The notes under the pieces: model-generated | The model's database searches: none | Told to the model about the DNA's origin: nothing | The model's input: only the letters and a program-made list of their open reading frames with translations | DNA from: a virus | Lineage: Duplodnaviria > Caudoviricetes | Virus record (IMG/VR): IMGVR_UViG_3300032270_000402 | Span: 1 to 54,757 of that record | Direction: 5' to 3' (one strand) | Length of the DNA stretch: 54,757 bases | Translations under genes and position numbers: made by a program | Shown: in pieces, positions 3,328 through 39,027 of the stretch | Numbering within the stretch: position 1 is the stretch's first letter | Layout: the number at the start of each line of letters is the position of its first letter

Positions 3328-6300
3328 ATGGCCGACGCCCCTCCCAAAACCAACATCCGAGACCGTGGCGTTCTTGCGAACCTGCTTGACTTCAACAAGA
3401 TGCGCGATGATTCCGCCGAGGTTGGCAATGCATTCTTCAACAAGAGCACCGAGCACAACGGCCCGTCCGACGCGATGCGTCATGTGATCTTCAACGCCAA
3501 GCTGACCACTGGCACGGGCTCGCGCTTCATCCCGTGGCTATTGGATAAGTTGCACGAGTACGGCGAGACTGCCGCTGGCCAGCCGCGTGCTGAGATGGAG
3601 ATGGACTTGGCGAATGGTGAGCTAGGCCGTGAAATCGGGAAGCTAGGGCTGAGCGATGCGGAAATGGTTGACCTTGCGCAGCGTGCGGTGCAAGGCGGCA
3701 AGGCCGTGTACATGACCAAGCCACCGCAGAAGACTGACTACGCAACCGGCGGTGAGGTGGACACCGAGCCGACCGATCTTGAGCAGGCAGTGCAGGAGCA
3801 GTTCGGTCTTGAGCCCAACCTAGACCGCGCGACACTGCTCCCGTACAAGAGCAAGGACAAGGGCTGGATCGCGCCAGAGGCGCTATACCAAGCCGCCAAG
3901 TTGGTCGCCTCACCGATCACCGCATTGCACGGCAAGTACATATCACCCGAAGAGACGGTCGAGGGCGCGCTGACACTGGGCAGTCCGAGCACCGCCGCTG
4001 GGCTGGTCTCCAAGGCCGAGCCCGGCGTTGCGCGCATGTTCATCGGTCAGAATTCAAATGCATGGGATACTGGCTCACACGCGCTGGCGCTGAAGATGGA
4101 AGACGAAGGCGCAAGCCCGCGCACGATCTGGGAGCAGACCATGAACTGGCGCACGCCAGAAGGCAAGTGGGCGCAAGAGATTAGTGACAAGGGCGCCGTA
4201 TACACGCCAGAGAATGCGCTCGACATTGCAAAAGAAAAGTACAAGAAAGCAACCACTGACATCAAGGCGCGAGCCAAGCAATATCAAGAAGCGCGCGACA
4301 TCAACTTGATGTACAGGGGGCTGCTACAAGATGAGCCCAATCCGTTTGTGCATACGCACACTGAAGGGCCACTAGCAGGCCAGCGCATGCTGCATCCGCA
4401 AACGGGAATGCCAATGATCAAGGAAGGCATGGAAGATGCCTATACAGAATTTAACTCTGCGCTTAAAGATAAAGCGATTCAGAAGTATTCAGAATCAACT
4501 GGCAAGCCAGTCTCTGAGGATGCGCGCTGGATCTTTAGAACGACACCGCTGTGGCAGATTGAAGATGCAATGAGCACCACACCGGCAAGCATTGGTCTTG
4601 TTCGTCCGAGCAAGACGACAATCAGGGACAGCACTGTCGGCAGCACGCTTGAGCATCCTGAACTGTACAGCGCCTATCCTCGTATGGCGAACTATCCTTT
4701 TGACCTACGCGTCAAAGGACAGATGAGCGGATATGCTGCATCGTTCAATCCGTATAGTCGAAAAGTGACCTTATCGGCCGCTTCAAAAGAGCCAACAGCA
4801 TCTATGCTGCACGAGCTGCAGCACGCGGTGCAGGAGCGTGAAGGATGGGAAGGCGGCGCAAGCACAAGTCAATTTTCTCACTTAAACCCAAGCATGGCCA
4901 TGCAGCTTTACCTGCGTAATCTAGGCGAAGGCATGGCGCGCGCCACCGAGGCGCGTAAAGATCTGACGATGGCGCAGCGTAACGCAATCTTCCCTGCCGA
5001 ATCATTCTCATTGCCGAATGTCAGCCCATCTACCACGATGGAGCAGTTTATGTGGCAGGGCATGGATCCCGCCAAGAGATCTTTGATCCTGAAGTATCTC
5101 AACAACAACATTGACGACCTGACATGGAAAGCGCGTATGACAGGCAAGGATGTGGACATCCCGCTGGCCTATGATCCAGATAAGGTCAGCTCGATTACTG
5201 ATAGCCTGAAGGCTGAGATGGCCGAGCCTAAGCCTAAGTTTGCAGAAGGCGGCGAGGTAAGCCTGCCACCCGTGCCGACATTGAACGATGCGCCTACTGA
5301 GTACCGCCAGCGCAAGGACACGCTCAGTGACAAGCTGACCGACCTGAGCATTGGTCTGGGCGAAGGATTAACCAACCAGCTCAAGGGATATTCCGAATTG
5401 ATTGAGCGTCCTATTGACACGGGCAAGGCCATGTACCAAGGCTTGAAGGCTGTGATCAACGATCCATCGGTCATCAAGGATGCGCTGCAGAGCATAGCCA
5501 CCAAGGCAACAGAGTCCCCAGTGGGACTGGGCACGGTCATTGGTGAGAATATCAGCCCAACTGGTTTGGCCAAGCGACTGGCTGGTGTGGGCAAGCCTGT
5601 GCTGAAGGAGCTGACCGTTTATCACGGATCACCGCATACATTTGAGCCTACGCCTAACAATCCTTTGGGTGAGTTCACCGCCAATAAGATTGGAACGGGA
5701 GAGGGCGCACAATCTTATGGCCACGGAATTTATGTAGCCGAAAATCCAGATGTAGCCAAAGGCTATCAGTTTATGGAGAAAAATTGGTTCGATACGGACG
5801 AGGCAACCTACAATGGCAAGTCAATCCAGCATTGGTATGATCAGGCGCAGAAAGATCAAGACCGCGCACACCGTCTAAATAACAAAGCAATGATCAATGA
5901 TGCCAATGCAAAGTTGGCATTCTGGGAAGACATCATGACGCACACTCACCCTGAAAAGGCCGTGAACACGATGCTCAGTCCAGAGTATGACTGGCCAGAG
6001 GCGGCTAAGTTTGCCAAGACCATCAAGCTGGATAAGTTCAAGGGCATACCAGAACCCGGTAATTTGTATACTGTAGATCTGCCTGACGAACACATCGCGC
6101 GTATGCTGGACTGGGATAAGCCGTTGAATGAGCAGCATCCTCATGTGCAGAATGTTATAAAAACAGGAATCTCTGCTGATGCTTTTTATAATCTTGGAAT
6201 CACTAATGATTTCAAAGATGCTTATAACGGGAAAACATTAACCGGAGGGGATCTGGTTGGATTCATGGGAAATCAATTTGATAAAAGCAACGCATCCGCT

Positions 6301-6528
6301 GTTCTTCGAGGTGCAGGCATTCCCGGCATCAAGTATTTGGATGCAGGATCAAGAGACAAGGCAACGGGCACGCGCAACTTCGTCATGTTCCCCGGCGAAG
6401 AGCACAATCTAAAGATACTGGAACGCAAAGCCAAAGGAGGCCTCGTTGCGCAACCGTCCAGTATAGAGTATGATTCGTCAAAGGTACAGTCCATCGTGGA
6501 TCAGCTACGTCAGGAAATCCATGCCTAA
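3328..6528 (+). CDS. Large polyvalent protein: DUF6973/Wnt-like domain + LPD23 + HExxH metallopeptidase + ADP-ribosyltransferase-like domain
   Basis: DAMRH...HE...MDLAN...GR; IWEQTMNWRTPEGKWAQEISD; HPELYSAYP...LHELQHAVQEREGW...GE..AR; YHGSPH...GTGEGAQSYGHGIYVAE...GIPGIKYLD...NFVMF. Confidence 0.75.
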   Translation: MADAPPKTNIRDRGVLANLLDFNKMRDDSAEVGNAFFNKSTEHNGPSDAMRHVIFNAKLTTGTGSRFIPWLLDKLHEYGETAAGQPRAEMEMDLANGELGREIGKLGLSDAEMVDLAQRAVQGGKAVYMTKPPQKTDYATGGEVDTEPTDLEQAVQEQFGLEPNLDRATLLPYKSKDKGWIAPEALYQAAKLVASPITALHGKYISPEETVEGALTLGSPSTAAGLVSKAEPGVARMFIGQNSNAWDTGSHALALKMEDEGASPRTIWEQTMNWRTPEGKWAQEISDKGAVYTPENALDIAKEKYKKATTDIKARAKQYQEARDINLMYRGLLQDEPNPFVHTHTEGPLAGQRMLHPQTGMPMIKEGMEDAYTEFNSALKDKAIQKYSESTGKPVSEDARWIFRTTPLWQIEDAMSTTPASIGLVRPSKTTIRDSTVGSTLEHPELYSAYPRMANYPFDLRVKGQMSGYAASFNPYSRKVTLSAASKEPTASMLHELQHAVQEREGWEGGASTSQFSHLNPSMAMQLYLRNLGEGMARATEARKDLTMAQRNAIFPAESFSLPNVSPSTTMEQFMWQGMDPAKRSLILKYLNNNIDDLTWKARMTGKDVDIPLAYDPDKVSSITDSLKAEMAEPKPKFAEGGEVSLPPVPTLNDAPTEYRQRKDTLSDKLTDLSIGLGEGLTNQLKGYSELIERPIDTGKAMYQGLKAVINDPSVIKDALQSIATKATESPVGLGTVIGENISPTGLAKRLAGVGKPVLKELTVYHGSPHTFEPTPNNPLGEFTANKIGTGEGAQSYGHGIYVAENPDVAKGYQFMEKNWFDTDEATYNGKSIQHWYDQAQKDQDRAHRLNNKAMINDANAKLAFWEDIMTHTHPEKAVNTMLSPEYDWPEAAKFAKTIKLDKFKGIPEPGNLYTVDLPDEHIARMLDWDKPLNEQHPHVQNVIKTGISADAFYNLGITNDFKDAYNGKTLTGGDLVGFMGNQFDKSNASAVLRGAGIPGIKYLDAGSRDKATGTRNFVMFPGEEHNLKILERKAKGGLVAQPSSIEYDSSKVQSIVDQLRQEIHA

Positions 6529-9103
6529 AGAATTTTTAGAAGACGAACAAGACGACGAGCAAGAGGCGGGGGAGACCGTTGAGCTTGAAGACGAGGACGT
6601 GTCGGTTGAAGATACTGACGACGGCGGCGCCGTCATTCGTCTTGACAATGCAGAAGACCTGAAGAAGAACACCGAGCACTTTGCCAACATTGTCGATGAG
6701 GTAGACCAATCCTCATTGCGCGTGGCCGTGAGCCAGCTGCTTGATAAGATCGACAAGGACAAAGAGGCGCGCGAGAAACGCGACAAACTGTACGAAGAAG
6801 GCCTGCGACGCACTGGCCTTGGTGACGACGCGCCCGGCGGCGCGCAGTTCACTGGCGCCAACAAGGTCGTGCACCCGATGCTGGTCGAGGCGTGCGTAGA
6901 CTTCTCGGCGCGCATGATGAAGGAGATCTTCCCACCGACTGGGCCTGTGAAGTCCAAGATCGTCGGCAAGGTCGAGAAAGACAAACAGATTAAGGCTCAG
7001 CGTAAGGCTGACTTCATGAATTGGCAGACCACGGAGCAGATGACTGAATTCCGTGGCGAGCTTGAGCAACTGAGCACGCAACTGCCACTAGGTGGCGCCC
7101 AGTACCTCAAGATGATGTGGAACGCGCAATACCGCCGCCCATCAACCGAATTTATTCCTATTGATGACGTATACCTGCCATTTGCGGCTACCAATTTCTA
7201 CACTGCTGAAAGAAAAACGCATGTGCAATACGTCACCAGTATGGAATACGACCGGCGGGTAGCTGCCGGAATGTACATTGATGTCGATGTCGGCATGCCT
7301 GATGAGGTAGATTTCAGTCAGGCGACCAAGGCAAACGACAAGATCGAAGGCAGAAAGGACACCGCTTACAACGAAGACGGCCTGCGCACCGTGTTTGAGG
7401 TGTACACGTACCTCGAATTTGATGAGGGCATGGCGCCATACATCATCAGCATCGATAAATCCAGCGGTAAGGCGCTAAACCTGTACCGAAACTGGGACGA
7501 AGGCGATGACATGAAGAAGGAATTGGACTGGATCGTCGAATTCCCGTTCATTCCGTGGCGCGGAGCCTACCCAATCGGCCTGACGCACATGCTTGGCGGC
7601 CTTTCTGGCGCCGCGACTGGCGCATTGCGCGCACTTTTGGACTCTGCGCACATCCAAAACATCCCGACCATGCTGAAATTGAAGGGCGGCCCGAATGGCC
7701 AGACCATCAACGTGCAGCCGACCGAGGTGATTGAGATCGAAGGCGGCGCGATGGTCGATGACGTGCGCAAAATTGCGATGCCATTGCCATTTAATCAGCC
7801 TAGTCCGGTGCTTTTCCAGCTCTTAGGCTTCTTGGTTGACGCTGGTAAGGGCGTCGTGCAGACATCCTTCGAGAAATTGTCTGATCAGAACCCAAATCAG
7901 CCCGTCGGGACGACGATGGCGCTGATTGAGCAGGGCATGGTCGTGTTTAGCTCGATCCATTCGCGCCTGCACAACTCTGTTGATCGCGTATTCAAGATTC
8001 TGCACCGAATTAACTCGGCATACTTGACCGAAGAGGACATTAAGGCGCAGGCGGGTGACTTTGAGATCAATCCTGCCGACTTTGATGGCCCAATGGACAT
8101 CATCCCGGTCAGCGACCCTGCAATTTTCAGCGAGACGCAACGATTTGCGCAGATTCAGGCCATCATGCAGCGCGCTCAGGCGATGCCGCAGATGTACGAC
8201 CTGCGCAAGGTCGAGGAAATGTTCCTGCGCGTAATGAAGGTACCGGATGACATTTTGGTAGAGAAGCCCGGCCAAGAGAATCGCGACCCTGTCAGTGAAA
8301 ATGTTGCCGCCTCATTAGGGCAGCCGATTTATGTATTGCCGTCTCAAGATCATATGGCGCACATCAAGACGCACCTTGCCTTCTTGCAGTCGCCACTGTT
8401 TGGCCAGAACCCTGCGATTGTCAAGACGTACCTGTACCCAATGGCCAATCACTTGCGCGATCACTTGCTGAACTACTACCTGACACAGGCGCATAAGGCC
8501 GTGAAAGATGCGACTGACAAGGACTTAATCGGCGCGGATCCACAAGAGCAGACGGACGTCATCCTGCGCACGCAACAATTCCTTGAGCAGCAGATGGGCA
8601 GCTTCGCGCCGATGCTGGCACAGATCGATCAGCAGGCTCAGCAATTTGCGCCACGCCCACCGATGCCACCAGACAACACCATTCAAGTGGCTCAGATGAA
8701 TGCTCAGCTGCAGCAACAATTGGCGCAGCAGCGCATGCAGGCAGATCAGGCAAAGTTGCAGCAGACCACGCAGTTCAAGCAGCTTGAGATGCAGCAGAAG
8801 TCGCAATCTGATCAGGCCAAGATGCAGCTTGAGATGGCCAAGCTTCAGCAGGGCACGCAAGCCAAGCAGATGGATGCGCAGGCATCGATCGAGGAGCAGA
8901 TGCGCGCGCTACAGGCTCAGCAGCAGCTGGAGCAGTTTAGACAGATGCAAGAAAATCAACGCAACACCGAGAGCAACCAGACTCGTGCTGCGATGAATAG
9001 TGCAGACAATGACACCGCGATGCGGCTTGCGTCTGCAGAGATTCTATCTGGTGAGAAGACTGCCCTTAGCACGGGCACTGGCATTAACCCCGGCACGAGG
9101 TAA
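6521..9103 (+). CDS. Portal protein (P22-like, Q-rich C-terminal barrel)
   Basis: ATG at 6521 after AGGA; acidic N-terminus, GANKVVHPMLVEAC, PVGTTMALIEQG..VFSSIHSRLH, DIIPVSDP and a long Q-rich coiled coil; lies between terminase and scaffold. Confidence 0.85.
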   Translation: MPKEFLEDEQDDEQEAGETVELEDEDVSVEDTDDGGAVIRLDNAEDLKKNTEHFANIVDEVDQSSLRVAVSQLLDKIDKDKEAREKRDKLYEEGLRRTGLGDDAPGGAQFTGANKVVHPMLVEACVDFSARMMKEIFPPTGPVKSKIVGKVEKDKQIKAQRKADFMNWQTTEQMTEFRGELEQLSTQLPLGGAQYLKMMWNAQYRRPSTEFIPIDDVYLPFAATNFYTAERKTHVQYVTSMEYDRRVAAGMYIDVDVGMPDEVDFSQATKANDKIEGRKDTAYNEDGLRTVFEVYTYLEFDEGMAPYIISIDKSSGKALNLYRNWDEGDDMKKELDWIVEFPFIPWRGAYPIGLTHMLGGLSGAATGALRALLDSAHIQNIPTMLKLKGGPNGQTINVQPTEVIEIEGGAMVDDVRKIAMPLPFNQPSPVLFQLLGFLVDAGKGVVQTSFEKLSDQNPNQPVGTTMALIEQGMVVFSSIHSRLHNSVDRVFKILHRINSAYLTEEDIKAQAGDFEINPADFDGPMDIIPVSDPAIFSETQRFAQIQAIMQRAQAMPQMYDLRKVEEMFLRVMKVPDDILVEKPGQENRDPVSENVAASLGQPIYVLPSQDHMAHIKTHLAFLQSPLFGQNPAIVKTYLYPMANHLRDHLLNYYLTQAHKAVKDATDKDLIGADPQEQTDVILRTQQFLEQQMGSFAPMLAQIDQQAQQFAPRPPMPPDNTIQVAQMNAQLQQQLAQQRMQADQAKLQQTTQFKQLEMQQKSQSDQAKMQLEMAKLQQGTQAKQMDAQASIEEQMRALQAQQQLEQFRQMQENQRNTESNQTRAAMNSADNDTAMRLASAEILSGEKTALSTGTGINPGTR

Positions 9104-9500: not shown

Positions 9501-9899
9501 ATGAAAAACCCCGCGCTTGAAGAAGCGTTTCCCGTGTGCGACCCCGGTGTTCATCCGCTTGGCTCGCGAATCCTAGTCCAAATCAGAACGCCTGAGACCA
9601 AATCAAAAGGCGGCATCATCCTCACCGAAAGCGATAAAGACACGCAGATGTGGAACACCACAGTTGCCAAGGTTATTGCGACCGGCCCACTTGCCTTTCA
9701 CAACCGCGACACATTGAAGCGTTGGCCAGAAGGCGACTGGTGCAAGCAGGGTGATTATGTTCGAGTCCCCAAGTACGGCGGTGACCGATGGGTCACGACC
9801 AACAGCAAGGGCGAGAAGGCTTACTACATCCTGATCAATGATCTGGACGTACTGGCACTTGTGACAACCGATCCGCTTGAACTAAAAGCGTTTTTCTAA
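9501..9899 (+). CDS. groES: GroES/Cpn10-like co-chaperonin
   Basis: HPLGSRILV...KSKGGIILT...AKVIATGP...GDYV..PKYGG...ILINDLDVLA. Confidence 0.85.
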   Translation: MKNPALEEAFPVCDPGVHPLGSRILVQIRTPETKSKGGIILTESDKDTQMWNTTVAKVIATGPLAFHNRDTLKRWPEGDWCKQGDYVRVPKYGGDRWVTTNSKGEKAYYILINDLDVLALVTTDPLELKAFF

Positions 9900-9911
9900 C
9901 CGAGGTGTATC

Positions 9912-10847
9912 ATGGCAAGAGATGAATTACTGACAGAGTCAGATGAGAATGAGAATCACAATGAGAATGATTCTCAAGAAGAATTGGTCATTGTCGAGGA
10001 CAAACCCGATGATGAAGATGATGAGGTTGTCTCTAGGCAGTCTGCCGATGACGATCAAGACAATAATGACGACGAACGTGCCGCGATTCGTGAGCGACGC
10101 CGTAAGGAAAAGCTTGAACGTAAAGAGCGCAAAGAGAAGGCCATCACCCGCGATAAGCTAGAGCTGGACTTTCTACGTAAGCGCAATGATGACCTTGAGC
10201 GTCGCGTATCTGTTCAAGAGACACGCGCCTATCAAAGCGACCTCAGCAACATTGATGCTCACTATGCGCAGGCAAACAAAGAAGTGCAGATGGCCGAGCG
10301 CGTGATTGCACAGGCAGTCGCAGCCGGTAATGGTGACGATGTCGCTCAGGCATTGCGCTATCGTGACGAGGCCATGGCCAAGGCGCATCAATTAGCTCAA
10401 TACAAGCAACAAGCCTCACAACAGCCTGCGCAACAGTCTGCTGTGGATGACATGATGATGGTGCATGCTAAGGAATTCTTAGCAGACAACCCATGGTATG
10501 ACATCAATGGCGGCGACGAAGACTCGGCAATTGTGATGGCAATTGACCGCACCATTGCAAAAGAAGGCCTCGACCCTCGATCTGAAGAGTACTGGGATGA
10601 GCTACGTGATCGCGTCGCCAAGCGCCTGCCGGGTAAGTTCGGCAAGCAGTCGGCACCTGCGCGCACTCCGCGCGGCGGCCCTGCTGTCGGATCGGGCAAG
10701 GAGCATGCGCCTACGTCCACTCGCAAGGAGATCTATATCTCCCCAGAGCGTAAGCAAGCCCTTGTAGATGCTGGTGTTTGGGACGATCCAGTGCTTCGCA
10801 TGAAGTACGTCAAGCGGTACGCCGCTTACGATCGCGACAAACGGTAA
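9912..10847 (+). CDS. Putative capsid scaffolding protein
   Basis: Acidic N-terminus, long charged coiled coil, NPWY motif; upstream of the capsid genes. Confidence 0.6.
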   Translation: MARDELLTESDENENHNENDSQEELVIVEDKPDDEDDEVVSRQSADDDQDNNDDERAAIRERRRKEKLERKERKEKAITRDKLELDFLRKRNDDLERRVSVQETRAYQSDLSNIDAHYAQANKEVQMAERVIAQAVAAGNGDDVAQALRYRDEAMAKAHQLAQYKQQASQQPAQQSAVDDMMMVHAKEFLADNPWYDINGGDEDSAIVMAIDRTIAKEGLDPRSEEYWDELRDRVAKRLPGKFGKQSAPARTPRGGPAVGSGKEHAPTSTRKEIYISPERKQALVDAGVWDDPVLRMKYVKRYAAYDRDKR

Positions 10848-10858
10848 ATGCGAATCAT

Positions 10859-10888
10859 TTGCATTACCACTCTCATTTGTGTTATAAC
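10859..10888 (+). promoter_or_regulatory. Sigma70 promoter for capsid genes
   Basis: TTGCAT-N18-TATAAC with TGTG just upstream of the -10. Confidence 0.6.
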
Positions 10889-10896
10889 TTGTAGCA

Positions 10897-10914
10897 ATTG
10901 CTGAAAGGAGCAAT
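10897..10914 (+). promoter_or_regulatory. RBS hairpin (copy 2)
   Basis: ATTGCT-GAAAGG-AGCAAT. Confidence 0.5.
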
Positions 10915-10917
10915 ATT

Positions 10918-11448
10918 ATGTCAGACGAACGCTTAAAGAAATCCGCTGGCGAAGGCCGCGACAGTCGTGTGATGAAAGATCGCGCAGTGACTGAAAATCG
11001 TGCCCTTAGCGATGAAGATCGGGTTGCAATGTTCCGTCAACAGTTTTTTCAGTCCAGTTTACCGGACTTGCCTAAGATCCCCGGCTGGCACATGTGCTGG
11101 CTAACCACGACTAACCCTCGTGATTCCATCCAGACGAGAATTCGTCTGGGCTACGAGCCTGTAAAGCCGGAAGATGTCCCCGGCTGGGAATACGCCACAC
11201 TCAAGACGGGTGACTGGGCAGGCTTCATTGGGGTGAACGAGATGCTTGCGTTTAAGTTGCCGATCTCATTGTACGAAATGTACATGAAGGAAGCACATCA
11301 CGATGCGCCGCTGCGCGAGGAAGAGAAGCTGACCGATACGGCTGAATTCCTTGAGGAGCAGGCAAAGGCATCTAAATCGCGGCTGACAATGGGTGATGGG
11401 CACGCCGAAATTGGACAGCAACGGAAAGCTCAGTTTGATCTTTCCTGA
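10918..11448 (+). CDS. Hypothetical head-module protein
   Basis: AGGAG RBS; LPDLPKIPGWHMCWL...GYEPV motif; lies between scaffold and capsid genes. Confidence 0.75.
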   Translation: MSDERLKKSAGEGRDSRVMKDRAVTENRALSDEDRVAMFRQQFFQSSLPDLPKIPGWHMCWLTTTNPRDSIQTRIRLGYEPVKPEDVPGWEYATLKTGDWAGFIGVNEMLAFKLPISLYEMYMKEAHHDAPLREEEKLTDTAEFLEEQAKASKSRLTMGDGHAEIGQQRKAQFDLS

Positions 11449-11476
11449 TTTAACCCATTAACCATTAGGAGCTACT

Positions 11477-12088
11477 ATGGCCTCTGTTAGCGCACCTTTT
11501 GGCTTTCGTCCTTCTTTCCACAACAGTGGACAGATTCGGCCGAAGGCCTATGTGATCGCTTCGGGATACGCCACAAGCGTATTCTCTGGCGACCCCGTGA
11601 AACTCACCGTCAACGGCGTTGTGCAACTTGGCACTAGCGATGGCACCCGTTCGGGTACTGCTGCTGGCGTTCAATTGCTTGGCGTGTTCCAAGGCGTTGA
11701 GTACCGTGATTCAACCGGCAAACCAACCATTTCCCCATTCTGGACTGGCAGCACGTCTGTCTATAACAGCGATGGTGCAACGGCTTGGGTGTTGGACGAT
11801 CCTGAAGCAATCTATGATGTTCAGTACACAAATCCGGGCACTGTCGGTACCACCAGCATGCAAGTTGCTGTTGGCCAGCAATGTGACTGGGTTGTTGCAA
11901 GTCCCGGCGGCTCTACGGCCACTGGTATTTCCAGCACTCAACTGAGCGCCATTCAATCCGGTACTGGCCAGTTCCAGATCACTGGGTTCCAAGGCAACAT
12001 CAACGATTCCCTGACAGATGCTTACGCTATTGTGACCGTTCGCTTGAACGAAGCTCAATACAAGTACCCTGTTGCGGCTCCAGTCTAA
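11477..12088 (+). CDS. Putative head decoration/minor capsid protein
   Basis: APFGFRP N-terminus, FSGDPV, GVFQGVEY, DDPEAIY; beta-rich; immediately upstream of the MCP. Confidence 0.6.
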   Translation: MASVSAPFGFRPSFHNSGQIRPKAYVIASGYATSVFSGDPVKLTVNGVVQLGTSDGTRSGTAAGVQLLGVFQGVEYRDSTGKPTISPFWTGSTSVYNSDGATAWVLDDPEAIYDVQYTNPGTVGTTSMQVAVGQQCDWVVASPGGSTATGISSTQLSAIQSGTGQFQITGFQGNINDSLTDAYAIVTVRLNEAQYKYPVAAPV

Positions 12089-12107
12089 CTAGAGGAGGCT
12101 AACTTAA

Positions 12108-13022
12108 ATGGCTACCCCAATGCGTAGTACTGACTTTCGGTCAGTAGTTGAGCCCATCCTGAACGAAGTGTTCGATGGCGTTTATGATCAGCGTGCTGAT
12201 GAATGGAAGATGGTCTTCAAAGAACAGAAGGGCATCCCACGTAATTACCACGAAGAGCCTGTGCTGTACGGGTTCGGTGCTGCCCCTGAGCTACCGGACG
12301 GCATGGCAGTAAGCTACCAGTCTGGTGGCGTGCTGTTCCTGCAACGCTACCTCTACAAGGTCTATGGCTTGGCATTTGCCTTGACCAAAGTACTTGTGGA
12401 AGACGGCGACCATATCCGCATCGGCCAGACCTATGCCAAGCACTTGGCACAGTCTCTGATCGAAACGAAAGAAACTCTGTCAGCTAACGTCCTGAACCGT
12501 GCCTTCAACGGCGCGTATCTTGGCGGTGACGGCGTTTCCTTGATCGCAACCAACCACCCGATCGTTAGCGGCACGTTCAGCAATCAGCTGACCACTGCAG
12601 CTAACCTGTCCCAGACTTCTCTGGAGCAGATGCTGGTTCAAATCCGCAACGCTGTTGACAACAACGGTAAGCGTATCCGCTTGAACCCAATGCAGATCGT
12701 TGCTGGCCCATCAAACGTGTTCCAAGCCGAAGTTCTGTTAAAGAGCGTTCTGCGTACGGGCACTGCTGATAACGACATCAACCCAATCAAATCGATGGGT
12801 CTGTTGGCGAAGGGTCAGGCCAATCTGAGCCGTATCACGAGCACCACCGCATGGTGGGTGCAGACGGATGCGCCAGAAGGCTTGAAGTTGCTCATGCGTC
12901 GTGGCCTCGAAAAGTCAATGGAAGGCGACTTCGAGACTGACAGCATGCGCTACAAAGCGACCGAGCGTTACACTGTTGGCTGGACTGACCCACGGGGTCT
13001 TTTTGGAACGGCAGGGGTTTGA
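12108..13022 (+). CDS. Major capsid protein (Mu gpT-like HK97 fold)
   Basis: EPILNEVF, GFGAAPE, YGLAFALT, GGDGVSL...HP, GDFETDSMRYKATERY..GWTDPRG; strongly biased codons. Confidence 0.9.
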   Translation: MATPMRSTDFRSVVEPILNEVFDGVYDQRADEWKMVFKEQKGIPRNYHEEPVLYGFGAAPELPDGMAVSYQSGGVLFLQRYLYKVYGLAFALTKVLVEDGDHIRIGQTYAKHLAQSLIETKETLSANVLNRAFNGAYLGGDGVSLIATNHPIVSGTFSNQLTTAANLSQTSLEQMLVQIRNAVDNNGKRIRLNPMQIVAGPSNVFQAEVLLKSVLRTGTADNDINPIKSMGLLAKGQANLSRITSTTAWWVQTDAPEGLKLLMRRGLEKSMEGDFETDSMRYKATERYTVGWTDPRGLFGTAGV

Positions 13023-31821: not shown

Positions 31822-32051
31822 GGATCAGCGTCACGCTTCCTACGAACATGCAGGTACGTGACTGGGCTGATCAGATCGCGCTTGACTTGGATCCATATGG
31901 CGCCTTTGGCCGGTTGGATGATGAGAATCGATGGCAGGATTGGGCGATGCAGTTCTTAAACAACACATCCCTTAAGAACAACTTCCCTATTCCGTATAAT
32001 TTTGACAATTGGAAAGACTGGGCAGAGCGATTCTGCGAAGTTTTGGCATAG
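31818..32051 (+). CDS. Trp-rich hypothetical protein
   Basis: ATGA overlap; W.DWA repeats. Confidence 0.7.
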   Translation: MRISVTLPTNMQVRDWADQIALDLDPYGAFGRLDDENRWQDWAMQFLNNTSLKNNFPIPYNFDNWKDWAERFCEVLA

Positions 32052-32062
32052 AGGGTATTACG

Positions 32063-34819
32063 ATGGCATTTCTTCCTCCGCGCATAAATCAGATGCAACG
32101 TCCAATGCAGACGATGCAAAGGACTATGCAGCCTATGATGCCCGTGCAGAATCGCATGCAGGCTCCTGCACGAATGCAGCAGTTTTCTTCTCCTGCGGGG
32201 CAGGCACCGCTGCCCAATCCACAGGCTATGCCTCCTATGTTGCAACCTGCTCAGCAGTCGCCTTTAGCCCCGCAACAACCTATGGGGCAGATGGGGCAAC
32301 TACCTACCGGCATAGATCCCCGTGCCGTTGCTGCTAACCCTTCTGGATTTCAACAATGGCAACAACAAGCATTAGCGCAAGAAGCTGCTATGCCCGGCTC
32401 TACTATGTTTGCCCCGCAACAACCTGCGGGACAGATGGGGTTAGGTGGATTGGGTCAAGGCATGGGCGCACTGCCCCCACAAACTGCTGCAAATACACAA
32501 AATATGGCTCCTATGCTGCAACAGTATTTAGCATCTGGTAATCAACAATCAGCATTGCAACAACCTGCGGGGCAGATGACCGGATGGACTCCAGCAAATC
32601 AAATGCCATCTTCGCAAAATTTGGCAACACAAGGTATTACTCAACAACAATTACAAGCTATGCCTACAGCACAAAAAGCATACGCCGAAGGCGGCGCTGT
32701 AAACGCTCCCAGCCCGCAGGCGTGGATGCCTCCTCCTAATCGATTGCCTATGATGCCGCCACAGCGGCCAATCGGTCAGATGCCTCCACAGGGTATGCCG
32801 CAGCAACCTCCAATGGGGCAGATGCCGCAACAGATGCCAATGGGGCAGATGCCTCCTCAGATGCCACAACGATTTGCTGTTGGTGGTTCAGTTACGCCAA
32901 TGCCAACCCAAGATCAATTGGGAGGAACACAGATCGCGCCTGTGCGGCAGCATGCACAAGGCGGAATGCATCATGATACTTCCAGCACGCCTGTTGATGA
33001 TCAGATGCTTGCCCAGATGCAAAAAAATCCACAATTTGATCAAGTGATTTCCGCTACTCATGAGCAAATGGGAAATATTCCTCTTGATGCGCTCAATGAG
33101 CTGATCAAGATGGTTCGGTTTGCAATGCTTCATCCGAAAAAGTATCCAGAAATCCGTGCTGCGGCAATTAGAGATCATATGGTTGAGCCAGATGATATGC
33201 CTGAGCAGTTTGATGTGCAGTTCTTGGCCACTATGCTTTCAACAATGGTAGCACTAAAAAAACGACAAGAGGCCAAGGGCAAAGAAGGATTTGCAAGTGG
33301 CGGCTTGGCATCAGCTGCAAAACAATTGCAAGCAAAGGGTCGGTACCATGACACGATACTGGCTCACATTAGCCCGCAAGAGGCTGCGATGTTGCGCGCA
33401 AATGGTGGCGCTGGGACAATTAACCCTGCCACGGGGCTGCCTGAATATCTCAGTTTCAGCAGCGTATGGAAAGATATTAAGAATGCCGCAAAGATCGTTG
33501 CCCCAATTATTTTGACTGCATTAGTACCTGCTGCCGGTGCGTATTTAGGTACATTTTTGACCGGCACACTCGGCGCTACTGCAGCAGGCATTGTCGGCAC
33601 TACATTAGCAGGTGGATTGGCAGGTGCAGCTGGCGCCGCTATTCAAGGTACCGATATTGGTAAGGGCGCAATTTTCGGTGGTATCACCGGTGGTCTTGGT
33701 GGCGCTCTTGGCGCCGGGGCAAATGCTCTGGGTAAAGCCGCTGGTTTGACTAAGGGGCTTAGCACTGCCGCGCAAGGATATATTGGCGCAGGATTGGCGG
33801 GCGCAGGCGCCGCTAAACTAACCGGTGAAGACTGGAAACAGGGCGCGCTTAAGGGACTGGCGTCACGTTACGTCTCTAACAAGTTGCAAAACTTCGCGCC
33901 CGTGAAGAGTGCCAATGAGTGGATGCAGGGCAAGGTTGCGCAGCTGACCCCGCCACAATCTACGCCTGCTATGGAGGCAGTCAATTCACTAAAGGACGCT
34001 GGATTTGAGGGAAATACTTTTGTCGCAGGGCAGCAAGTTGACCCCGCTACTGGGGAGGTTTACAAGCCAAACATTGAGGCTGCATCCACATACACTAGCC
34101 CTGATGGCATGCCTAATCTTGATGCAAATGGCAATCCGGTTGTGGAGACGGGTGGGCGTTATATCAATCAAGGCCCAACGGCAGCTGCTGGTACGCCAGC
34201 CGCTCCTGCAGCGCCTCAGACGCTCGCAGGCAAGGCTATGGATGCCGTTGGCTCTGGTCTGCAGACCTCTGCGCTAGTCGGCGCTGTAGGCCTGCTAAGC
34301 GGTTCTGGAGCACCTCCTCCGCCAGCTGTAGAGGCTATCAAGACATTGTCACCTGAGCAACAGGCATACTTCAATCGACCTACGGTGAGACTTGACTACA
34401 ATCGCATGATGCAAAACGCAGCAGCGTCGGGCATGAGTCTCGCGCAATTTATGAATCAGAACTGGAGCACTATTCAGGGCGGCGCTTATAACGTCGCAGA
34501 AGGTGCCGCACCTCCAACGCCAAAGGCACGCGGTGGGCAGGCATATGCCACTGGCGGCGCGCTGTCAAAGATGGCATACTTGGCGCAGGGTTCTGGCTCA
34601 GGTCGTGCTGACACGATTGACGCCAAATTGTCTGATGGCGAGTTTGTTGTTGATGCCGAGACAGTTGCCCTGCTGGGAGACGGTTCCACCAAAGAAGGTG
34701 CACGCCGACTGAATATGATGAGAGAGCAGCTACGTCAACAAAAGGGTGCGGCGCTCTCAAAAGGTAAGTTCAGTCCTGCGGCCAAGTCGCCGCTGGCATA
34801 TATGGCAGGTGCACGATAA
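32063..34819 (+). CDS. Internal virion/ejection protein with Q/P/M-rich N-terminus, six AxGG motifs and a C-terminal G.G..D.I.A.LSDGEFV domain
   Basis: GAGG RBS before the ATG at 32063; DTILAHISPQEA...GTINPATGLPEY; G/A-rich hydrophobic helices. Confidence 0.65.
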   Translation: MAFLPPRINQMQRPMQTMQRTMQPMMPVQNRMQAPARMQQFSSPAGQAPLPNPQAMPPMLQPAQQSPLAPQQPMGQMGQLPTGIDPRAVAANPSGFQQWQQQALAQEAAMPGSTMFAPQQPAGQMGLGGLGQGMGALPPQTAANTQNMAPMLQQYLASGNQQSALQQPAGQMTGWTPANQMPSSQNLATQGITQQQLQAMPTAQKAYAEGGAVNAPSPQAWMPPPNRLPMMPPQRPIGQMPPQGMPQQPPMGQMPQQMPMGQMPPQMPQRFAVGGSVTPMPTQDQLGGTQIAPVRQHAQGGMHHDTSSTPVDDQMLAQMQKNPQFDQVISATHEQMGNIPLDALNELIKMVRFAMLHPKKYPEIRAAAIRDHMVEPDDMPEQFDVQFLATMLSTMVALKKRQEAKGKEGFASGGLASAAKQLQAKGRYHDTILAHISPQEAAMLRANGGAGTINPATGLPEYLSFSSVWKDIKNAAKIVAPIILTALVPAAGAYLGTFLTGTLGATAAGIVGTTLAGGLAGAAGAAIQGTDIGKGAIFGGITGGLGGALGAGANALGKAAGLTKGLSTAAQGYIGAGLAGAGAAKLTGEDWKQGALKGLASRYVSNKLQNFAPVKSANEWMQGKVAQLTPPQSTPAMEAVNSLKDAGFEGNTFVAGQQVDPATGEVYKPNIEAASTYTSPDGMPNLDANGNPVVETGGRYINQGPTAAAGTPAAPAAPQTLAGKAMDAVGSGLQTSALVGAVGLLSGSGAPPPPAVEAIKTLSPEQQAYFNRPTVRLDYNRMMQNAAASGMSLAQFMNQNWSTIQGGAYNVAEGAAPPTPKARGGQAYATGGALSKMAYLAQGSGSGRADTIDAKLSDGEFVVDAETVALLGDGSTKEGARRLNMMREQLRQQKGAALSKGKFSPAAKSPLAYMAGAR

Positions 34820-36285
34820 TGGCTGACAACCAAAACCCACTGGGCGGATTATTTCAAGGTACGGCACTTGCCGTGCCTACCAATCAGTACGTAAGCCAGT
34901 CCACCGAATACCCAAAATGGCTACAGGACGCGATCTATAATCAGATCAATACGGCTACGGCAATTGCTAATACGCCGTATCAAGAATATATGATGCCTAC
35001 CGTTGCTGAGCTGACGCCAGATCAGCAGCAGGCATATGCAGATATTCGCGCTGATCAAGGCGCATGGAAGCCAGAGATGGATTTTGCCACCAGTGGCATG
35101 GGCGCGCTATCGCAGACTCAGGCTCAGCAACAGGCATCTCAACCATACTTCGCGCAGACCGCTGGGATGAGCGGCGTGTCAGCTGCTCAGCCTGCATTTC
35201 AGCAGCAGGCCAGTCTATTGGGTAGCTTGAATTATAACAACCCAACTGAAAATCTTTACGCGGCACAGAATCAATACCTCAACCCACAGCTGGCCAATTA
35301 CGCGCTACAGTCTGGGCAACAGGCTTATGGCGCGGCAGGCGGCTTGGACATTGCCGGTGCCGCGAATCCTTACATGCAGAGAGCTGCGCAAACATCCGCC
35401 GCCGGTATTGGTCAGTACATGAACCCGTACCAGCAGTCTGTAATGGACACGATCGCTCAGCAGGGCGCGCGTAATCTTTCTGAGCACTTACTTCCAGCCG
35501 TGTCTGATGCATTCATCCGCGCCGGTCAGTTTGGCGGCACTCGTATGGGCGAGTTCGGCGAACGCGCCGTGCGTGACACCCAAGAGGCTGTTCTTGCTCA
35601 GCAGGCGCAGGCCGCTCAGCAGGGCTATGGGCAGGCGCTCTCTGCCTCGCAGGCAGATCTTGCGCGTCAGGCTCAGCTGGCAGGCACAGCCGGGCAGCTC
35701 ACTGGACAGCAATACTCTGCACTGACCAACTTAGGACAGGCGCAGACAGCCGCTGGGCAAGCTCAGCAACAGGCTGGCTTGGGCGCCGCGCAAAATGTCG
35801 CGACAGGCCAGCAGCAAGCCATTGCGCAGGCGATGCAGGCAGCGGGTCAGTATGGTCAATTGGGCGGCCAAATGGGCAGCTTAACCGCCGACCAACAGCG
35901 AATTTTGGCGGGTCTTGGCACCAGCGCAGGACAGATGGCAGGAGCCGACACCGCAAATCAAATGTCAGCACTTACCAATCTTGCAAATCTTGCAAAAACA
36001 GGTCAGGGCATGTCAGCGGCGGATGCGGCCGCATTGGAAGCAGTGGGACAGGCTCAGCAACAGAACATGCAGCAGCAACTCACCGCCGCTCAGAATCAAT
36101 ACCTGCAGCAGCAATTGTATCCACAGCAGCAAGCCGACTGGCTGGCGACACAGATTCGCGGCATGGCGCCAATCACCCCATCGCAGACCGCGACGACAAC
36201 ATCCGGCAATACGTACACGTATGGCCCATCGCCGTTGTCGCAATTGGTTGGTGGGTACTCGGCATACAAAGGTTTAACCGGTTAA
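34819..36285 (+). CDS. DNA pilot/ejection protein (Q/A/G-rich)
   Basis: YMNPYQQSV...AGQFGGTR...; C-terminal PSPLSQLVG. Confidence 0.6.
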   Translation: MADNQNPLGGLFQGTALAVPTNQYVSQSTEYPKWLQDAIYNQINTATAIANTPYQEYMMPTVAELTPDQQQAYADIRADQGAWKPEMDFATSGMGALSQTQAQQQASQPYFAQTAGMSGVSAAQPAFQQQASLLGSLNYNNPTENLYAAQNQYLNPQLANYALQSGQQAYGAAGGLDIAGAANPYMQRAAQTSAAGIGQYMNPYQQSVMDTIAQQGARNLSEHLLPAVSDAFIRAGQFGGTRMGEFGERAVRDTQEAVLAQQAQAAQQGYGQALSASQADLARQAQLAGTAGQLTGQQYSALTNLGQAQTAAGQAQQQAGLGAAQNVATGQQQAIAQAMQAAGQYGQLGGQMGSLTADQQRILAGLGTSAGQMAGADTANQMSALTNLANLAKTGQGMSAADAAALEAVGQAQQQNMQQQLTAAQNQYLQQQLYPQQQADWLATQIRGMAPITPSQTATTTSGNTYTYGPSPLSQLVGGYSAYKGLTG

Positions 36286-36309
36286 TCGCGGCGCACGTTT
36301 GGAGTAGTT

Positions 36310-39027
36310 ATGGGTTACGAATTACAGAAGCTGCAGAATTTATATGGCGTCAGCGATCCGACGTTGAGCTATATGGGCACGGCAATGCCTGTACGTCCAA
36401 CCGCGCCTACGGCATTGAAGTCTGGCGCTACAGCTGATGAGCAGACTGCGTATAACAAATCGATTGATGCATATAACACTGGTTTAGCCAATTACAATAC
36501 CAATTTACCTAAGTATCAAGAAGATCAGAAGCTCTATAATCAGTATCGTGATCTTTATTCTCAGCGTATGCTGGGCACAAAAATGTATGACCCTGCTGCC
36601 AATCGGCAGTTCTTAAGTGGGCCAGTTTACTCTGGCGCAGATGCAAATCTAGCAGCCGCTCCGCGTTACACTCAGAGCGTAATGCCAGCCAGTCAAGAAA
36701 CATTGCCAACTTTAGTTAGCAAGTACGCGACAGCAGGTGTGCCCGCAACAGGCGGCACGACTGATGGTACATTGTCACATGTCACCACAACTCAGGCACA
36801 GGCACAGGCGCAATATGATGCTGATTTAGCGGCCTACTTGAATACGTGGAAAGCTGCGCATCCATCCCCCATATTAGGAGGAACAACCGCTCAAAACGCA
36901 GCTGCAGAAGAATGGAAAGCACAACATCTATTCGGTCAGGGCAATTATGCTTACGGAGCGACAACCAGTGGCACGACTGGAGGCACGACCGGCGGCACGA
37001 CCGGCGGCACGACTGATGGCACATTGTCACACGCTGGAATGACACAGGCGCAAGCGCAGGCATTATATGATGCGGATAAAGCGGCCTTCTTGCAAAATTA
37101 TGGCCTTTACAATCCTGCGCCCAGTACCTCGTCTGTATATATTGCGCCGCAGACGTTGAGATCACAATTAGCAACGTATGGTGCCGCACAAAATCTCGCT
37201 TTAAGTAAGTGGCAGTCACTCAATCCATTTGGCCAAGGTAAATATATTTATACTTCAGCAACCGGTGGCCCTGTCAATCTTGCGCACGGCGGTCTTGCCA
37301 ATTTATCGCACAAGTATGCTGCAAAACAAGGCATGAATGACTTTTTGCATCCTGAAGAGGCCAAGGCGCGACAGGAAGCAGAAGCAAAAGCACCAGCAGA
37401 GGCACAAGCTAAGGCACAAGCAGATGCTGCTGCCGCTGCAGCTGCCGCTCAGCAACCGCCTGCGCAAGTAGAACAACCACCTGCACAAGTGACACCACCA
37501 GAACAAGTCGTTGTCCCACCATTGGGCGGCGTCACGGCAAAGCCTGCCACTCCTGCGCCGGACTTAGGCGCTAATACACCGCTGCCATTGAAGCCTGCGG
37601 TGAGTGCGCCTAATCCTAATGATCCTGTGGTCTCAGCGATTCGCTCAATGCCTACAGGCACGATGACCGCGCCTACAGTATCGACCAATCCATTGGCTGA
37701 CATGTATAGCAAGTATCAGTCAGTTGCCGCTGATCGTAACGCAACAGCCGCTCAGCAACGCTGGCAGGCTGATCGCAATAACTACATCCGTTCAATGTAT
37801 GGTCTAGGTACGTACACGCCTGATGCGGTCACGCAATGGGAAGCACAGAACGTGATCGGGCAGGGCAAATACAAATATGCCACTGGCGGCGCGGTAAAGA
37901 CCAACTATGCGGATGGAGATTCAGTGCAGACAGGGGCCGACACACTGCAGGCAATCATGGACGGATACATGGGCCAACAAGTTGAGCCTGCTGAAATTAA
38001 AACAGCTCGTGAAAAAGCAAATGCAGATACTCAGGCATTTAGTGATTTGCTGACCAAGTCAACTAGCCAAGAATACAAGCCAGATAAATCTGAAATGTAT
38101 TTCCGTTTGGCTGCTGCCTTCTTGACCCCCGGCAAGACTGGGTCTTTTGGCGAGGGTTTGGGACAGGCTGGCGCTGCAATGGCTGACTATACCAAGGGCG
38201 TGCGTGAAGCTAAACAAGCACAAGATCTGCGCAATGTACAATTAGGCTTAGAGGGTCAAAAACTTAAGATGGCAGCATCTAAGGAAGATCTATCTAGTCA
38301 ACTGGCATTGTACAAGCAAGATCAGTCCGACAAGCGCGCCATCATGAGCAAATTGATTGAGCAAGAAATTGCCTCTGGCAAGCCACAAAGTGAGGCGGGC
38401 AAGCAGGCTGCGGATGAGGGATTGACTCCCGGCACTCCTGACTACACGGCGCGAGTTAAAGCAATAGTCAATGAAAAACTTGCAGCAAGTGCTGACAGGC
38501 TCAATGCTACATTAGCTAATTACCAATCTGCTGGCGCATTACGTGATGCCCAACTAACGGCTTTGCTTAAAAAGCAAGGGCAATTGACACCTGCAGAAAT
38601 GCAGCTTAAAGATACGTCTCGTTCTCTGTTAAATTCATATGACCAATCTCTTTCTATGTTGACCAAGGTATACGAATTGAACAAGAACGCTTTTGGTGGC
38701 ACAAAGGCTGAGCAGGGGCAGCGATTGCTGTTAGATCAAACAGGATCAAAAGATCCGAAATTATTGAACACAAAAGAATTGGAAAACTTACTTGGCTTGG
38801 ATACTGTCAATCAGTTAAAAGCAACTTTCGGCGCTCAATTCACTGCAGCGGAAGGTGCCAAGTTGGAAGCATTGCGCGGTATCAACGCAAAGACAACCGA
38901 AGAACGACGTCGAATCATTATGGATGCTTACCAGTTGCTGAAAGACAAAAAGGCGCGCGAAGAGCAGCACTTTAATGATATTAGCCAAGGCCTCTATTCC
39001 AGAATTGACCAGCCGGAACTTCAATAA
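36310..39027 (+). CDS. Internal virion/ejection protein with internal repeats and AxGG motifs
   Basis: Three W....FGQG.Y.Y repeats, a duplicated GGTTDGTLSH block, AAFLTPGKTGSFGEGLG and a helical C-terminus. Confidence 0.6.
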   Translation: MGYELQKLQNLYGVSDPTLSYMGTAMPVRPTAPTALKSGATADEQTAYNKSIDAYNTGLANYNTNLPKYQEDQKLYNQYRDLYSQRMLGTKMYDPAANRQFLSGPVYSGADANLAAAPRYTQSVMPASQETLPTLVSKYATAGVPATGGTTDGTLSHVTTTQAQAQAQYDADLAAYLNTWKAAHPSPILGGTTAQNAAAEEWKAQHLFGQGNYAYGATTSGTTGGTTGGTTGGTTDGTLSHAGMTQAQAQALYDADKAAFLQNYGLYNPAPSTSSVYIAPQTLRSQLATYGAAQNLALSKWQSLNPFGQGKYIYTSATGGPVNLAHGGLANLSHKYAAKQGMNDFLHPEEAKARQEAEAKAPAEAQAKAQADAAAAAAAAQQPPAQVEQPPAQVTPPEQVVVPPLGGVTAKPATPAPDLGANTPLPLKPAVSAPNPNDPVVSAIRSMPTGTMTAPTVSTNPLADMYSKYQSVAADRNATAAQQRWQADRNNYIRSMYGLGTYTPDAVTQWEAQNVIGQGKYKYATGGAVKTNYADGDSVQTGADTLQAIMDGYMGQQVEPAEIKTAREKANADTQAFSDLLTKSTSQEYKPDKSEMYFRLAAAFLTPGKTGSFGEGLGQAGAAMADYTKGVREAKQAQDLRNVQLGLEGQKLKMAASKEDLSSQLALYKQDQSDKRAIMSKLIEQEIASGKPQSEAGKQAADEGLTPGTPDYTARVKAIVNEKLAASADRLNATLANYQSAGALRDAQLTALLKKQGQLTPAEMQLKDTSRSLLNSYDQSLSMLTKVYELNKNAFGGTKAEQGQRLLLDQTGSKDPKLLNTKELENLLGLDTVNQLKATFGAQFTAAEGAKLEALRGINAKTTEERRRIIMDAYQLLKDKKAREEQHFNDISQGLYSRIDQPELQ
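36970..37022 (+). repeat. 12-bp tandem repeat (GGCACGACYGRH x 4.4)
   Basis: Encodes GTTG/GTTD units. Confidence 0.85.

Follow-up and report, generated by a model that had tools for sequence, protein, structure and literature searches.

The AxGG motif in four proteins of an uncultured phage

We have analyzed a short peptide motif that recurs in four proteins encoded by an uncultured, podovirus-like phage. The DNA, referred to below as the window, comprises 54,757 bases and is the entire IMG/VR record IMGVR_UViG_3300032270_000402. The consensus of the motif, with Phi standing for Y, F, M, L, K or H, is [KR]-Phi-A-x-G-G-x-V, and in the pooled homologues this becomes [KR]-Phi-A-x-G-G-x-V-[KR]. 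It is found in a polyvalent protein encoded ahead of the portal, in a small basic protein, and in two large proteins encoded downstream of the tail genes, which we call the 32009 and 36310 proteins after the starts of their genes. The coordinates of these and neighboring features are collected in Table 1.

A first-pass annotation of this DNA had listed 17 copies of the motif, and all 17 were verified in frame at the positions given in Table 1, that at 37906 being the variant YADGD. Enrichment was measured on 44 open reading frames (ORFs; 16,370 amino acids) of the window, with every protein shuffled 2000 times with preservation of its composition. The AxGG pattern is observed 30 times (14.5 expected), [YFWHMLK]AxGG 14 times (3.15 expected), [YF]AxGG 9 times (0.89 expected) and [YF]AxGGx[VLMI] 7 times (0.18 expected). 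For each of these patterns the observed count was reached by none of the 2000 shuffles. The GG dipeptide alone is not enriched (144 versus 130 expected, p = 0.10), and thus the richness of the proteins in glycine and alanine does not account for the excess of the motif. The annotation had further proposed that the copies are concentrated in four proteins and are missing from those of the capsid, portal, terminase and replication. Both statements hold, with 13 of the 14 [YFWHMLK]AxGG copies lying within the four proteins, where 0.91 would be expected, and no strict copy in TerL, the portal, the major capsid protein or the replication proteins. The sole strict copy elsewhere is YADGG in the tail-fibre-like protein.

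The codons used for the alanine (GCA, GCC, GCG and GCT) and glycine (GGC, GGT, GGA and GGG) residues of the motif vary roughly as in the remainder of the genes. The signal therefore lies at the level of the protein, and a repeat or recombination signal in the DNA is ruled out.

Homologues were collected for each protein, giving 623 for the 32009 protein (120 listed sequences analyzed), 92 for the 36310 protein (all analyzed), 458 at E ≤ 0.001 for the polyvalent protein (120 listed sequences analyzed) and 1905 for the basic protein (150 listed sequences analyzed). The pattern [FY]AxGG occurs 129 times against 10.8 expected in the 32009 set, 91 against 4.8 in the 36310 set, 84 against 7.5 in the polyvalent set and 104 against 2.0 in the basic set. 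Conservation in homologues, on which the first-pass annotation had made its proposal depend, is thus evident for all four proteins in metagenomic sequences, the enrichments being 12-, 19-, 11- and 52-fold respectively, although these ratios are not independent counts because the sequences within a set are related. The reversed pattern GGxA[FY] was found 6, 1, 13 and 0 times in the same sets, i.e., at or below expectation in three of them and above it in the polyvalent set, and scrambled motifs were near or under expectation.

The four proteins have a fairly high content of glycine and alanine, and the motif might on that account be taken for a product of chance and composition. That reading is refuted by the shuffles, by the reversed and scrambled controls lying near or below expectation, and by the conservation of motif positions in hundreds of homologues (120 listed in the case of the 32009 protein); we give it virtually no weight.

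Specificity was surveyed in 80 related IMG/VR loci, from which a simple ORF caller gave 1274 ORFs. Homologues of the 32009 protein contain 174 motifs where 33 are expected, with at least one copy in 80 of 80 ORFs, and those of the 36310 protein contain 36 where 8.6 are expected, with a copy in 27 of 55 ORFs. The groups homologous to the neighboring virion proteins of the window, 29027, 30292, 34819 and 39027, have 0 (8.3 expected), 2 (8.6 expected), 2 (10.9 expected) and 0 (9.4 expected) copies, and the 745 unassigned ORFs have 36 (26.7 expected). Within these loci the motif is confined to the 32009 and 36310 groups. We also examined five complete related genomes, with portals 66-71% and capsid proteins 85-93% identical to those of the window (tblastn). 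The motif was found in 0/5 of their TerL, 0/5 of their portal and 0/5 of their capsid proteins. An alignment-based scan found more than 460 IMG/VR loci that encode a relative of the 32009 protein, whereas viral contigs scanned with a single protein gave none. The clade that the motif marks is large and uncultured.

Table 1. Genes and motif-related features of the window (positions in nucleotides; residues refer to the protein concerned)
Feature	Positions	Strand	Residues	Remarks
TerL	1175-2740			
GIY-YIG homing endonuclease	2740-3312			After TerL
Polyvalent protein	3328-6528	+	1066 amino acids	Between TerL/GIY-YIG and portal
DUF6973, polyvalent protein			20-120	Pfam, 34 bits versus cut-off 27
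YATGG, polyvalent protein	3739-3753	+	138-142	Right after N-terminal DUF6973 block
LPD23, polyvalent protein			237-290	Pfam, 24.5 bits, under cut-off 27
HExxH zincin, polyvalent protein			495-499	
FAEGG, polyvalent protein	5239-5253	+	638-642	Preceded by YDP-type helix 617-632
C-terminal tag, polyvalent protein	6427-6525	+	KAKGG 1034-1038	Motif (from 6427) plus 28-residue tail with amphipathic helix
Portal	6470-9103			
GroES-like co-chaperonin	9501-9899			PHROG 3188, E = 3.6e-13; between portal and scaffold-like gene
Scaffold-like acidic/coiled protein	9912-10847			
Two head-module proteins	Starting at 10918 and 11477			No family assignment
HK97-fold capsid protein	12108-13022			
EndoVII/HNH homing-type endonuclease	13097-13750			After capsid gene
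Small basic DUF6496 protein	14638-15078	+	146 amino acids	
Motifs, basic protein	YSYGG 14692, MASGG 14716, YAKGG 14734, LKKGG 14923	+		
Fibre protein	16456-23472		2338 amino acids	
Tail-fibre-like protein	25181-26563			
SU10-type adaptor	28395-29027			PF24175, E = 6.4e-28
Two tail proteins				After SU10-type adaptor, before 32009
Five large genes	32009-42750			Downstream of tail genes
Tape-measure-like ejection protein (32009)	32009-34819	+	936 amino acids from TTG	Possible ATG starts at 32063 and 32174
Three N-terminal low-complexity motifs, 32009	32681-32965	+		YAEGG 32681, FAVGG 32873, HAQGG 32951; equivalents in closest homologues P0004-P0006
FASGG, 32009	33290-33304	+	428-432	Right after folded helical domain; followed by DT-x-LAH-x-x-P-x-EA element
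Motif pair, 32009	34523-34558	+	KARGG 839-843, YATGG 846-850	KARGG 34523, YATGG 34544; after second folded domain
End piece of 90 residues (predicted), 32009	34547-34816	+	A847-R936	D-T-I-x-A-x-L-S-x-G-E-F-V element plus terminal helix
Second motif-bearing ejection protein (36310)	36310-39027	+	905 amino acids	
Motifs, 36310	SATGG 37255, LAHGG 37279, YATGG 37876, YADGD 37906 (variant)	+		

The motif-bearing proteins and their setting

The 32009 protein comprises, in order, a Q/P/M-rich N-terminus, a helical domain, a Gly-rich hydrophobic body, a second small domain and a C-terminal module. It matches PHROG 17300 (tape measure; E = 1.2e-4), and by tblastn (6e-19) it matches four Caulobacter phages, in one of which the protein is annotated as a tape-measure protein. 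The end of the protein matches the tape-measure protein of mycobacteriophage Douge (gp16, 8zdo_S) in two stretches (phmmer E = 0.0017), and this is the sole PDB match for the end piece. In the 120 listed homologues both core motifs keep their GG, either without exception or with more than 90% conservation; at the FASGG site neither the GG nor the L after it varies, and conservation of the Ala is at least 90%. The YATGG at residue 846 is followed after 17 residues by D-T-I-D-A-K-L-S-D-G-E-F-V-V. This is the arrangement by which we define the C-terminal module, namely Phi-A-x-G-G, some 10-30 residues, and an element of the type [ST]-D-[ST]-I-x-A-x-[LV]-S-x-G-E-[FY]-V. The distance to the end of the protein is fixed, in that 90 residues follow the opening residue of the last motif in the 120 listed family members (interquartile range 90-90). 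The 90-residue end piece is a candidate for an anchor that would remain after a cut before A847.

The core of the 32009 protein was modeled with AlphaFold2 (AF2) from a 120-row alignment, with a mean predicted local distance difference test score (pLDDT) of 63. Two domains are confident (core residues 1-97 and 441-500, pLDDT >90), and the motifs directly follow them at core residues 99-103 and 510-521. The suggestion in the first-pass annotation that the copies lie between folded domains is thus upheld for this protein. For the polyvalent protein, where the mean pLDDT is 51, the model points to it only loosely. All three motifs lie in low-confidence stretches beside helices; the first, at 138-142, is inside the low-pLDDT segment 130-235, after a helix at 110-122.

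A further feature of the 32009 protein is a second strongly conserved element after FASGG. This stretch, at 33335-33470 (residues ~443-487), reads D-T-x-L-A-H-I-x-P-x-E-A ... G-G-x-G-T-I-N-P-x-T-G-L-P-E-Y and has many invariant columns in the 120 homologues. It has the look of a variant form of the GE[FY]V element found after the last motif.

The polyvalent protein combines several unrelated domains, LPD23 and a zincin HExxH among them, and is encoded at a late-gene site beside the terminase and portal. In these respects it is like the polyvalent proteins described by Iyer et al. 2017 (PMC5512222; this and the other PMC papers are cited from retrieved passages), who proposed autoproteolytic processing and packaging. 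Neither a junction motif of the AxGG kind nor a common C-terminal tail is mentioned in the retrieved passages of that paper. A phmmer search of the PDB with the polyvalent protein gave zero matches.

Alignment of 13 divergent polyvalent proteins leaves only six invariant columns, Y615, A1035, G1037, G1038, V1040 and Y1048. Four of the six are supplied by the motif, and five by the C-terminal tag. In the homologues the motif coincides with the edges of homology. Of 22,724 internal ends of BLAST alignments, 3,536 fall within 10 residues of a motif where 781 are expected, and the depth of homology drops from 0.42 to 0.15 from the upstream to the downstream side. Motifs are also frequent near the C-terminus, with 54 of 221 at most 50 residues from it compared to ~9 expected, whereas the 9 of 221 that lie equally close to the N-terminus are as expected by chance. 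Many of the homologues terminate in the motif and a short tail that belongs to one of a small number of types. Of 188 copies, 86 have K or R at position -1.

The window polyvalent protein has no tblastn match (E ≤ 1e-3) in the five related complete genomes. Nevertheless, the proteins encoded ahead of their portals contain the motif in 5/5 cases, and 4/5 carry the C-terminal tag, ending in [FY]AxGG and a YD/FD-type tail of amphipathic appearance. One genome (G003) encodes an N-terminal block as a fusion with the main protein, while in another (G004) the same block is a separate protein of 166 residues with a motif 20 residues from its end. On this sequence comparison, the module carries its own C-terminal tag whether fused or free. 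HExxH was not found in any of the five pre-portal proteins. In keeping the motif without HExxH they differ from the proteins of Iyer et al. 2017 (PMC5512222), and HExxH is therefore no consistent partner of the motif. Autoprocessing by HExxH as a general mechanism is thereby ruled out.

The small basic protein has a C-terminal DUF6496 (PF20106, residues 98-143, 39.7 bits versus a cut-off of 24, E = 6.4e-10). In its family [FY]AxGG is present in 72 of the 150 listed proteins, with 3 to 8 copies each in listed members. A phmmer search of the PDB gave nothing significant, with one weak match at E = 0.48. The first ~18 residues (14638-14691; K-Y-V-K-D-F-D-F type), directly upstream of the first motif, are conserved in many members, and may be an N-terminal targeting leader. 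In the 36310 family [FY]AxGG is found in 72 of the 92 proteins, frequently as tandem pairs.

The nearest cultured relatives of the phage are Caulobacter phages RLK, RW, KcrB and GB2A, with 56% identity in the 30292 protein. Phage SU10 has five ejection proteins in the same position as the five large post-tail genes of the window (PMC9509320). The last of these genes (41029-42750) has no tblastn match (E ≤ 1e-3) in the five relatives and no Pfam or PHROG family. The capsid protein, at 85-93% identity across the five relatives compared to 27-64% for the ejection proteins, belongs to an unusually constrained shell. Between the scaffold and capsid genes, the 176-residue protein of 10918-11448 is 71-87% identical in 5/5 relatives and has no Pfam, PHROGs or Atlas family; the ESM Atlas gave no name for this or the 11477 protein. 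The GroES-like protein is kept at 56-60% identity in 5/5 relatives, and its loop K-S-K-G-G-I-I matches a relaxed pattern of the motif. Mimicry of the GroES mobile loop was rejected, as in most copies of the motif the residues after the GG do not form a hydrophobic triplet. The structural module houses two genes for homing-type endonucleases, GIY-YIG and EndoVII/HNH. The EndoVII/HNH gene is present in just one of the five relatives (G004), and is therefore probably a mobile insertion. Only the first ~112-124 residues of the 2338-residue fibre match the relatives (63-75% identity), the remainder being replaced, which is the pattern expected for swapping of the receptor-binding part.

Comparison with tape-measure processing and other systems

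The tape-measure protein pb2 of phage T5 is cleaved after R1127, as mapped by LC-ESI-TOF mass spectrometry (PMC10038345). The title of a 1973 paper by Zweig and Cummings reports that the host takes part in the cut of the T5 tail protein. On translating pb2 (1219 residues) we found only two AxGG sequences, one of which starts at A1128 (A-E-G-G). The scissile bond is therefore that before the alanine of the motif. The chance of such a coincidence is ~2 in 1218, or ~1 in 100 if any bond within or beside the motif is counted. The C-terminal fragment pb2C begins A-E-G-G, followed by H-x-x-E-V-V, which resembles H-R-G-E-F-V of lambda; its length is 92 residues, against the 90 after the last motif in the 32009 family. 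Cleavage was one of the two functions suggested in the first-pass annotation, and T5 pb2 would provide it with a precedent. Were sites of the T5 type, with A-x-G-G just C-terminal to the scissile bond, to operate here, the 13 strict Phi-A-x-G-G sequences in the four window proteins would be the candidates.

A parallel with phage lambda had also been drawn, and proves apt. In gpH there is FATGG at 733, GEFV next, and YATGG at 778. The protein is cut nearby, with a fragment estimated at ~78 kDa, and a 2025 paper gives both the site and the catalyst as unknown (PMC12617516). A cut at 733/734 would give ~80 kDa. The C-terminal fragments of T5 and of lambda both remain bound in the tail tip (PMC10038345, PMC12617516).

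Similar ends are found in other phages. The tape-measure protein of JBD30 has FASGG, an S-D-S-I...D-E-F-M element and then HATGG, and gp066 of Caulobacter phage RLK has one motif, 85 residues from its end. The combination of Phi-A-x-G-G with a GE[FY]V-type element is thus common to the 32009 protein, RLK gp066, the JBD30 tape-measure protein and lambda gpH. Like T5 pb2 and lambda gpH, the 32009 protein passes from a Gly-rich hydrophobic segment through Phi-A-x-G-G and the GE[FY]V-type element to a terminal helix. Unlike those of T5 and lambda, it belongs to a podovirus-like phage with an SU10-type adaptor, and no tail tube or chaperone gene was recognized in the window with PHROGs or Pfam. On these searches the 32009 protein does not qualify as a tape-measure protein in the strict sense of one from a long-tailed phage with tube and chaperone genes. 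A further difference from T5 and lambda is that the window motif is also present in proteins that are not tape-measure-like. The modeled residues of the Douge protein (8zdo_S), 1658-1699, exclude its motif regions (PMC13033339). The lambda and Douge structures model the extreme C-terminal helix only, so that the region of the motif is without a structure.

The first-pass annotation saw no canonical prohead protease, and our searches agree. None was found in the head module (9501-13022) with Pfam or PHROGs, and the protease-fusion matches of the capsid protein cover the capsid part only. A Pfam scan of 28 window proteins gave no domain of the C5, C39 or deubiquitinase type, and a search of NCBIfam gave nothing useful. 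Known Gly-Gly sites, such as those of the adenovirus protease, ubiquitin-type LRGG and double-glycine bacteriocin leaders, are cut after the GG and have a hydrophobic residue a few positions upstream. The AxGG motif shares the GG pair and the upstream hydrophobic residue, but the one mapped phage site, that of T5, is cut three residues before the GG. Nor do the polyvalent proteins have the character of double-glycine leader systems, in which an N-terminal leader of 15-30 residues ending in GG goes with a C39 peptidase-transporter, given that N-terminal motifs are at chance level and that the C39 domain was not found.

The capsid targeting sequence of T4 is a short N-terminal peptide by which unrelated proteins are carried into the head, and which a dedicated prohead protease afterwards cuts off. 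The AxGG motif differs from it in location and in cut motif, and in that no prohead protease was found in the head module of the window. Encapsulin cargo-loading peptides are short conserved C-terminal sequences on unrelated cargo that dock to an HK97-fold shell and are not cleaved. A conserved terminal peptide on dissimilar cargo, the first half of what defines a cargo-loading peptide (the second being the binding of a shell or portal component), is seen here, but unlike the encapsulin peptides the AxGG motif is also present in tail-resident tape-measure proteins. We also considered a self-cleaving fold of the S24/LexA type for the GE[FY]V element, which we take to resemble the G-D-S-M...G-D-x-V strands of that fold. 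This was rejected: there is no Pfam S24 match (E ≤ 10), lambda lacks a matching Ser/Thr, and the region is predicted to be helical or disordered.

The first 20 residues of P22 gp7 (L104, 9369-10058) are removed by the host oligopeptidase A (OpdA), leaving the new N-terminus K-G-G-K-G-G (GenBank note, NC_002371). Here a host enzyme trims a short terminal peptide from an ejection protein, beside a GG pair; unlike the window motif, the cut is N-terminal and precedes K-G-G rather than A-x-G-G. No strict motif was found in the P22 ejection proteins. The virion RNA polymerase of N4, reported to be packaged uncut (PMC5512222), has 0 motifs in 3500 residues, which is compatible with either cleavage or docking.

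A proposed cleavable tether and its alternatives

The motif is a putative short linear motif that marks the C-terminal junctions of modules in proteins leaving the virion with the DNA. The reading that we prefer, with a probability of roughly 0.4, is that it is the junction of a cleavable tether. The sequence on its downstream side would anchor the protein in the assembling particle, the anchor being the fixed 90-residue tape-measure-type end piece in the 32009 protein and the ~30-residue tail with its amphipathic helix in the pre-portal cargo. The chain would be cut at the bond before the alanine, as mapped in T5 pb2, and this would free the upstream module for ejection with the DNA. The polyvalent protein would have been assembled from cassettes, with internal copies of the motif as the separators between them. 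The cut would more likely be made by a host enzyme or by self-cleavage than by the phage HExxH domain. A tether of this kind accounts for the tags on standalone modules, the fixed length of the end piece, the fragments in the tail tips of T5 and lambda, and the junction position of the motif.

Several observations weigh against this reading. No cutting protease was found, the only phage HExxH domain being that missing from the pre-portal proteins of the relatives. The T5 link is a match of four residues, and the P22 gp7 cut adjoins a GG pair in a different register. Alignment of the 32009 profile with hhalign to the C-termini of T5 pb2 and lambda gpH gave probabilities of 0.2% and 1.7%, and no Pfam family (E ≤ 10) covers the C-terminal modules of tape-measure type; the relationship of the 32009 protein to those of T5 and lambda is therefore at the level of the motif only. 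The module past the second core motif has low pLDDT in the monomer AF2 model. In addition, the motifs of the basic family lie in tandem 6-10 residues apart, which is odd for release sites and fits multivalent binding better.

The tandem arrangement is one reason to consider docking, the other function suggested in the first-pass annotation. The motif would then be an uncut assembly peptide that recruits cargo and ejection proteins multivalently to a common partner, such as the portal, the scaffold, the capsid interior or each other, for ordered exit. The 3 to 8 copies in the listed basic proteins would suit avidity, and the shell, portal, terminase and nozzle proteins are all without the motif. 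The relatives offer indirect support, in that pre-portal cargo dissimilar to that of the window appears to keep the motif and a short amphipathic C-terminal tail, and standalone modules retain both, which would be needless for a pure separator. Yet no partner was found (a predicted complex of the portal with polyvalent residues 1020-1066 scored 0.00 against a mark of 0.32, evidence neither way), and T5 is cut exactly at the motif. Long-tailed phages also carry the motif, in tape-measure proteins that do not enter the head at any stage, so that a receptor in the capsid interior cannot be general. We regard docking without cleavage as unlikely, though it is the strongest of the alternatives.

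Nor do we think it at all probable that the motif is purely a cleavage code of the polyprotein type, its one function being to let a protease split multi-domain precursors, and the tails having no anchoring role. The cut of T5 pb2 between R and AEGG, the location of motifs at junctions of homology blocks, and the zincin HExxH of the polyvalent protein, for which the autoprocessing proposed by Iyer et al. 2017 (PMC5512222) could be invoked, are all in keeping with such a code. However, single-module proteins keep a near-C-terminal motif and a conserved tail, the pre-portal proteins of the relatives have the motif in the absence of HExxH, no prohead or cysteine protease was found, and copies 6-10 residues apart in the basic family are hard to place in this scheme. 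Still less probable is a structural role with no specific partner, whether as a Gly-Gly turn or helix cap in proteins that thread a channel, or as an aromatic/Gly sticker that co-condenses internal proteins with DNA. The motifs between helices or in low-confidence linkers, their basic flanks and common aromatics, and the abundance of copies in the basic DUF6496 proteins would agree with this. The conserved Ala and Val and the fixed spacing of 90 residues, however, point to specific recognition, and the other internal proteins, exemplified by the 34819 and 39027 groups, are at or below expectation.

The cleavable tether might be of wider occurrence. A single release code, cut between Phi and the alanine of A-x-G-G, could operate across tailed-phage morphotypes, in the tape-measure proteins of long-tailed phages and in the ejection and polyvalent cargo of podophages, in each case leaving a short C-terminal anchor and freeing the body. 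We consider this extension rather doubtful. Such a code would cut T5 pb2, and is predicted to cut lambda gpH at 733/734 or 778/779; the motif thus offers two specific candidate bonds for the lambda cut. A conserved host enzyme or self-cleavage triggered by assembly would explain the absence of a phage protease traveling with the motif.

Processing of tape-measure proteins, polyvalent proteins and targeting peptides are each known. What appears to be new is that a single conserved motif connects them, and that it coincides with the only mapped cut in a tape-measure protein; an AxGG motif linking these systems was not found in the open-access literature searched. If the tether is real, the ~30-residue tag would be portable, and would provide an answer to how large, unrelated anti-host effectors enter phage heads and are released, and it could also serve to bring foreign proteins into capsids. 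A signal common to tape-measure proteins and podovirus ejection proteins would, if true, connect the machinery by which long-tailed phages deliver their DNA with that of short-tailed ones.

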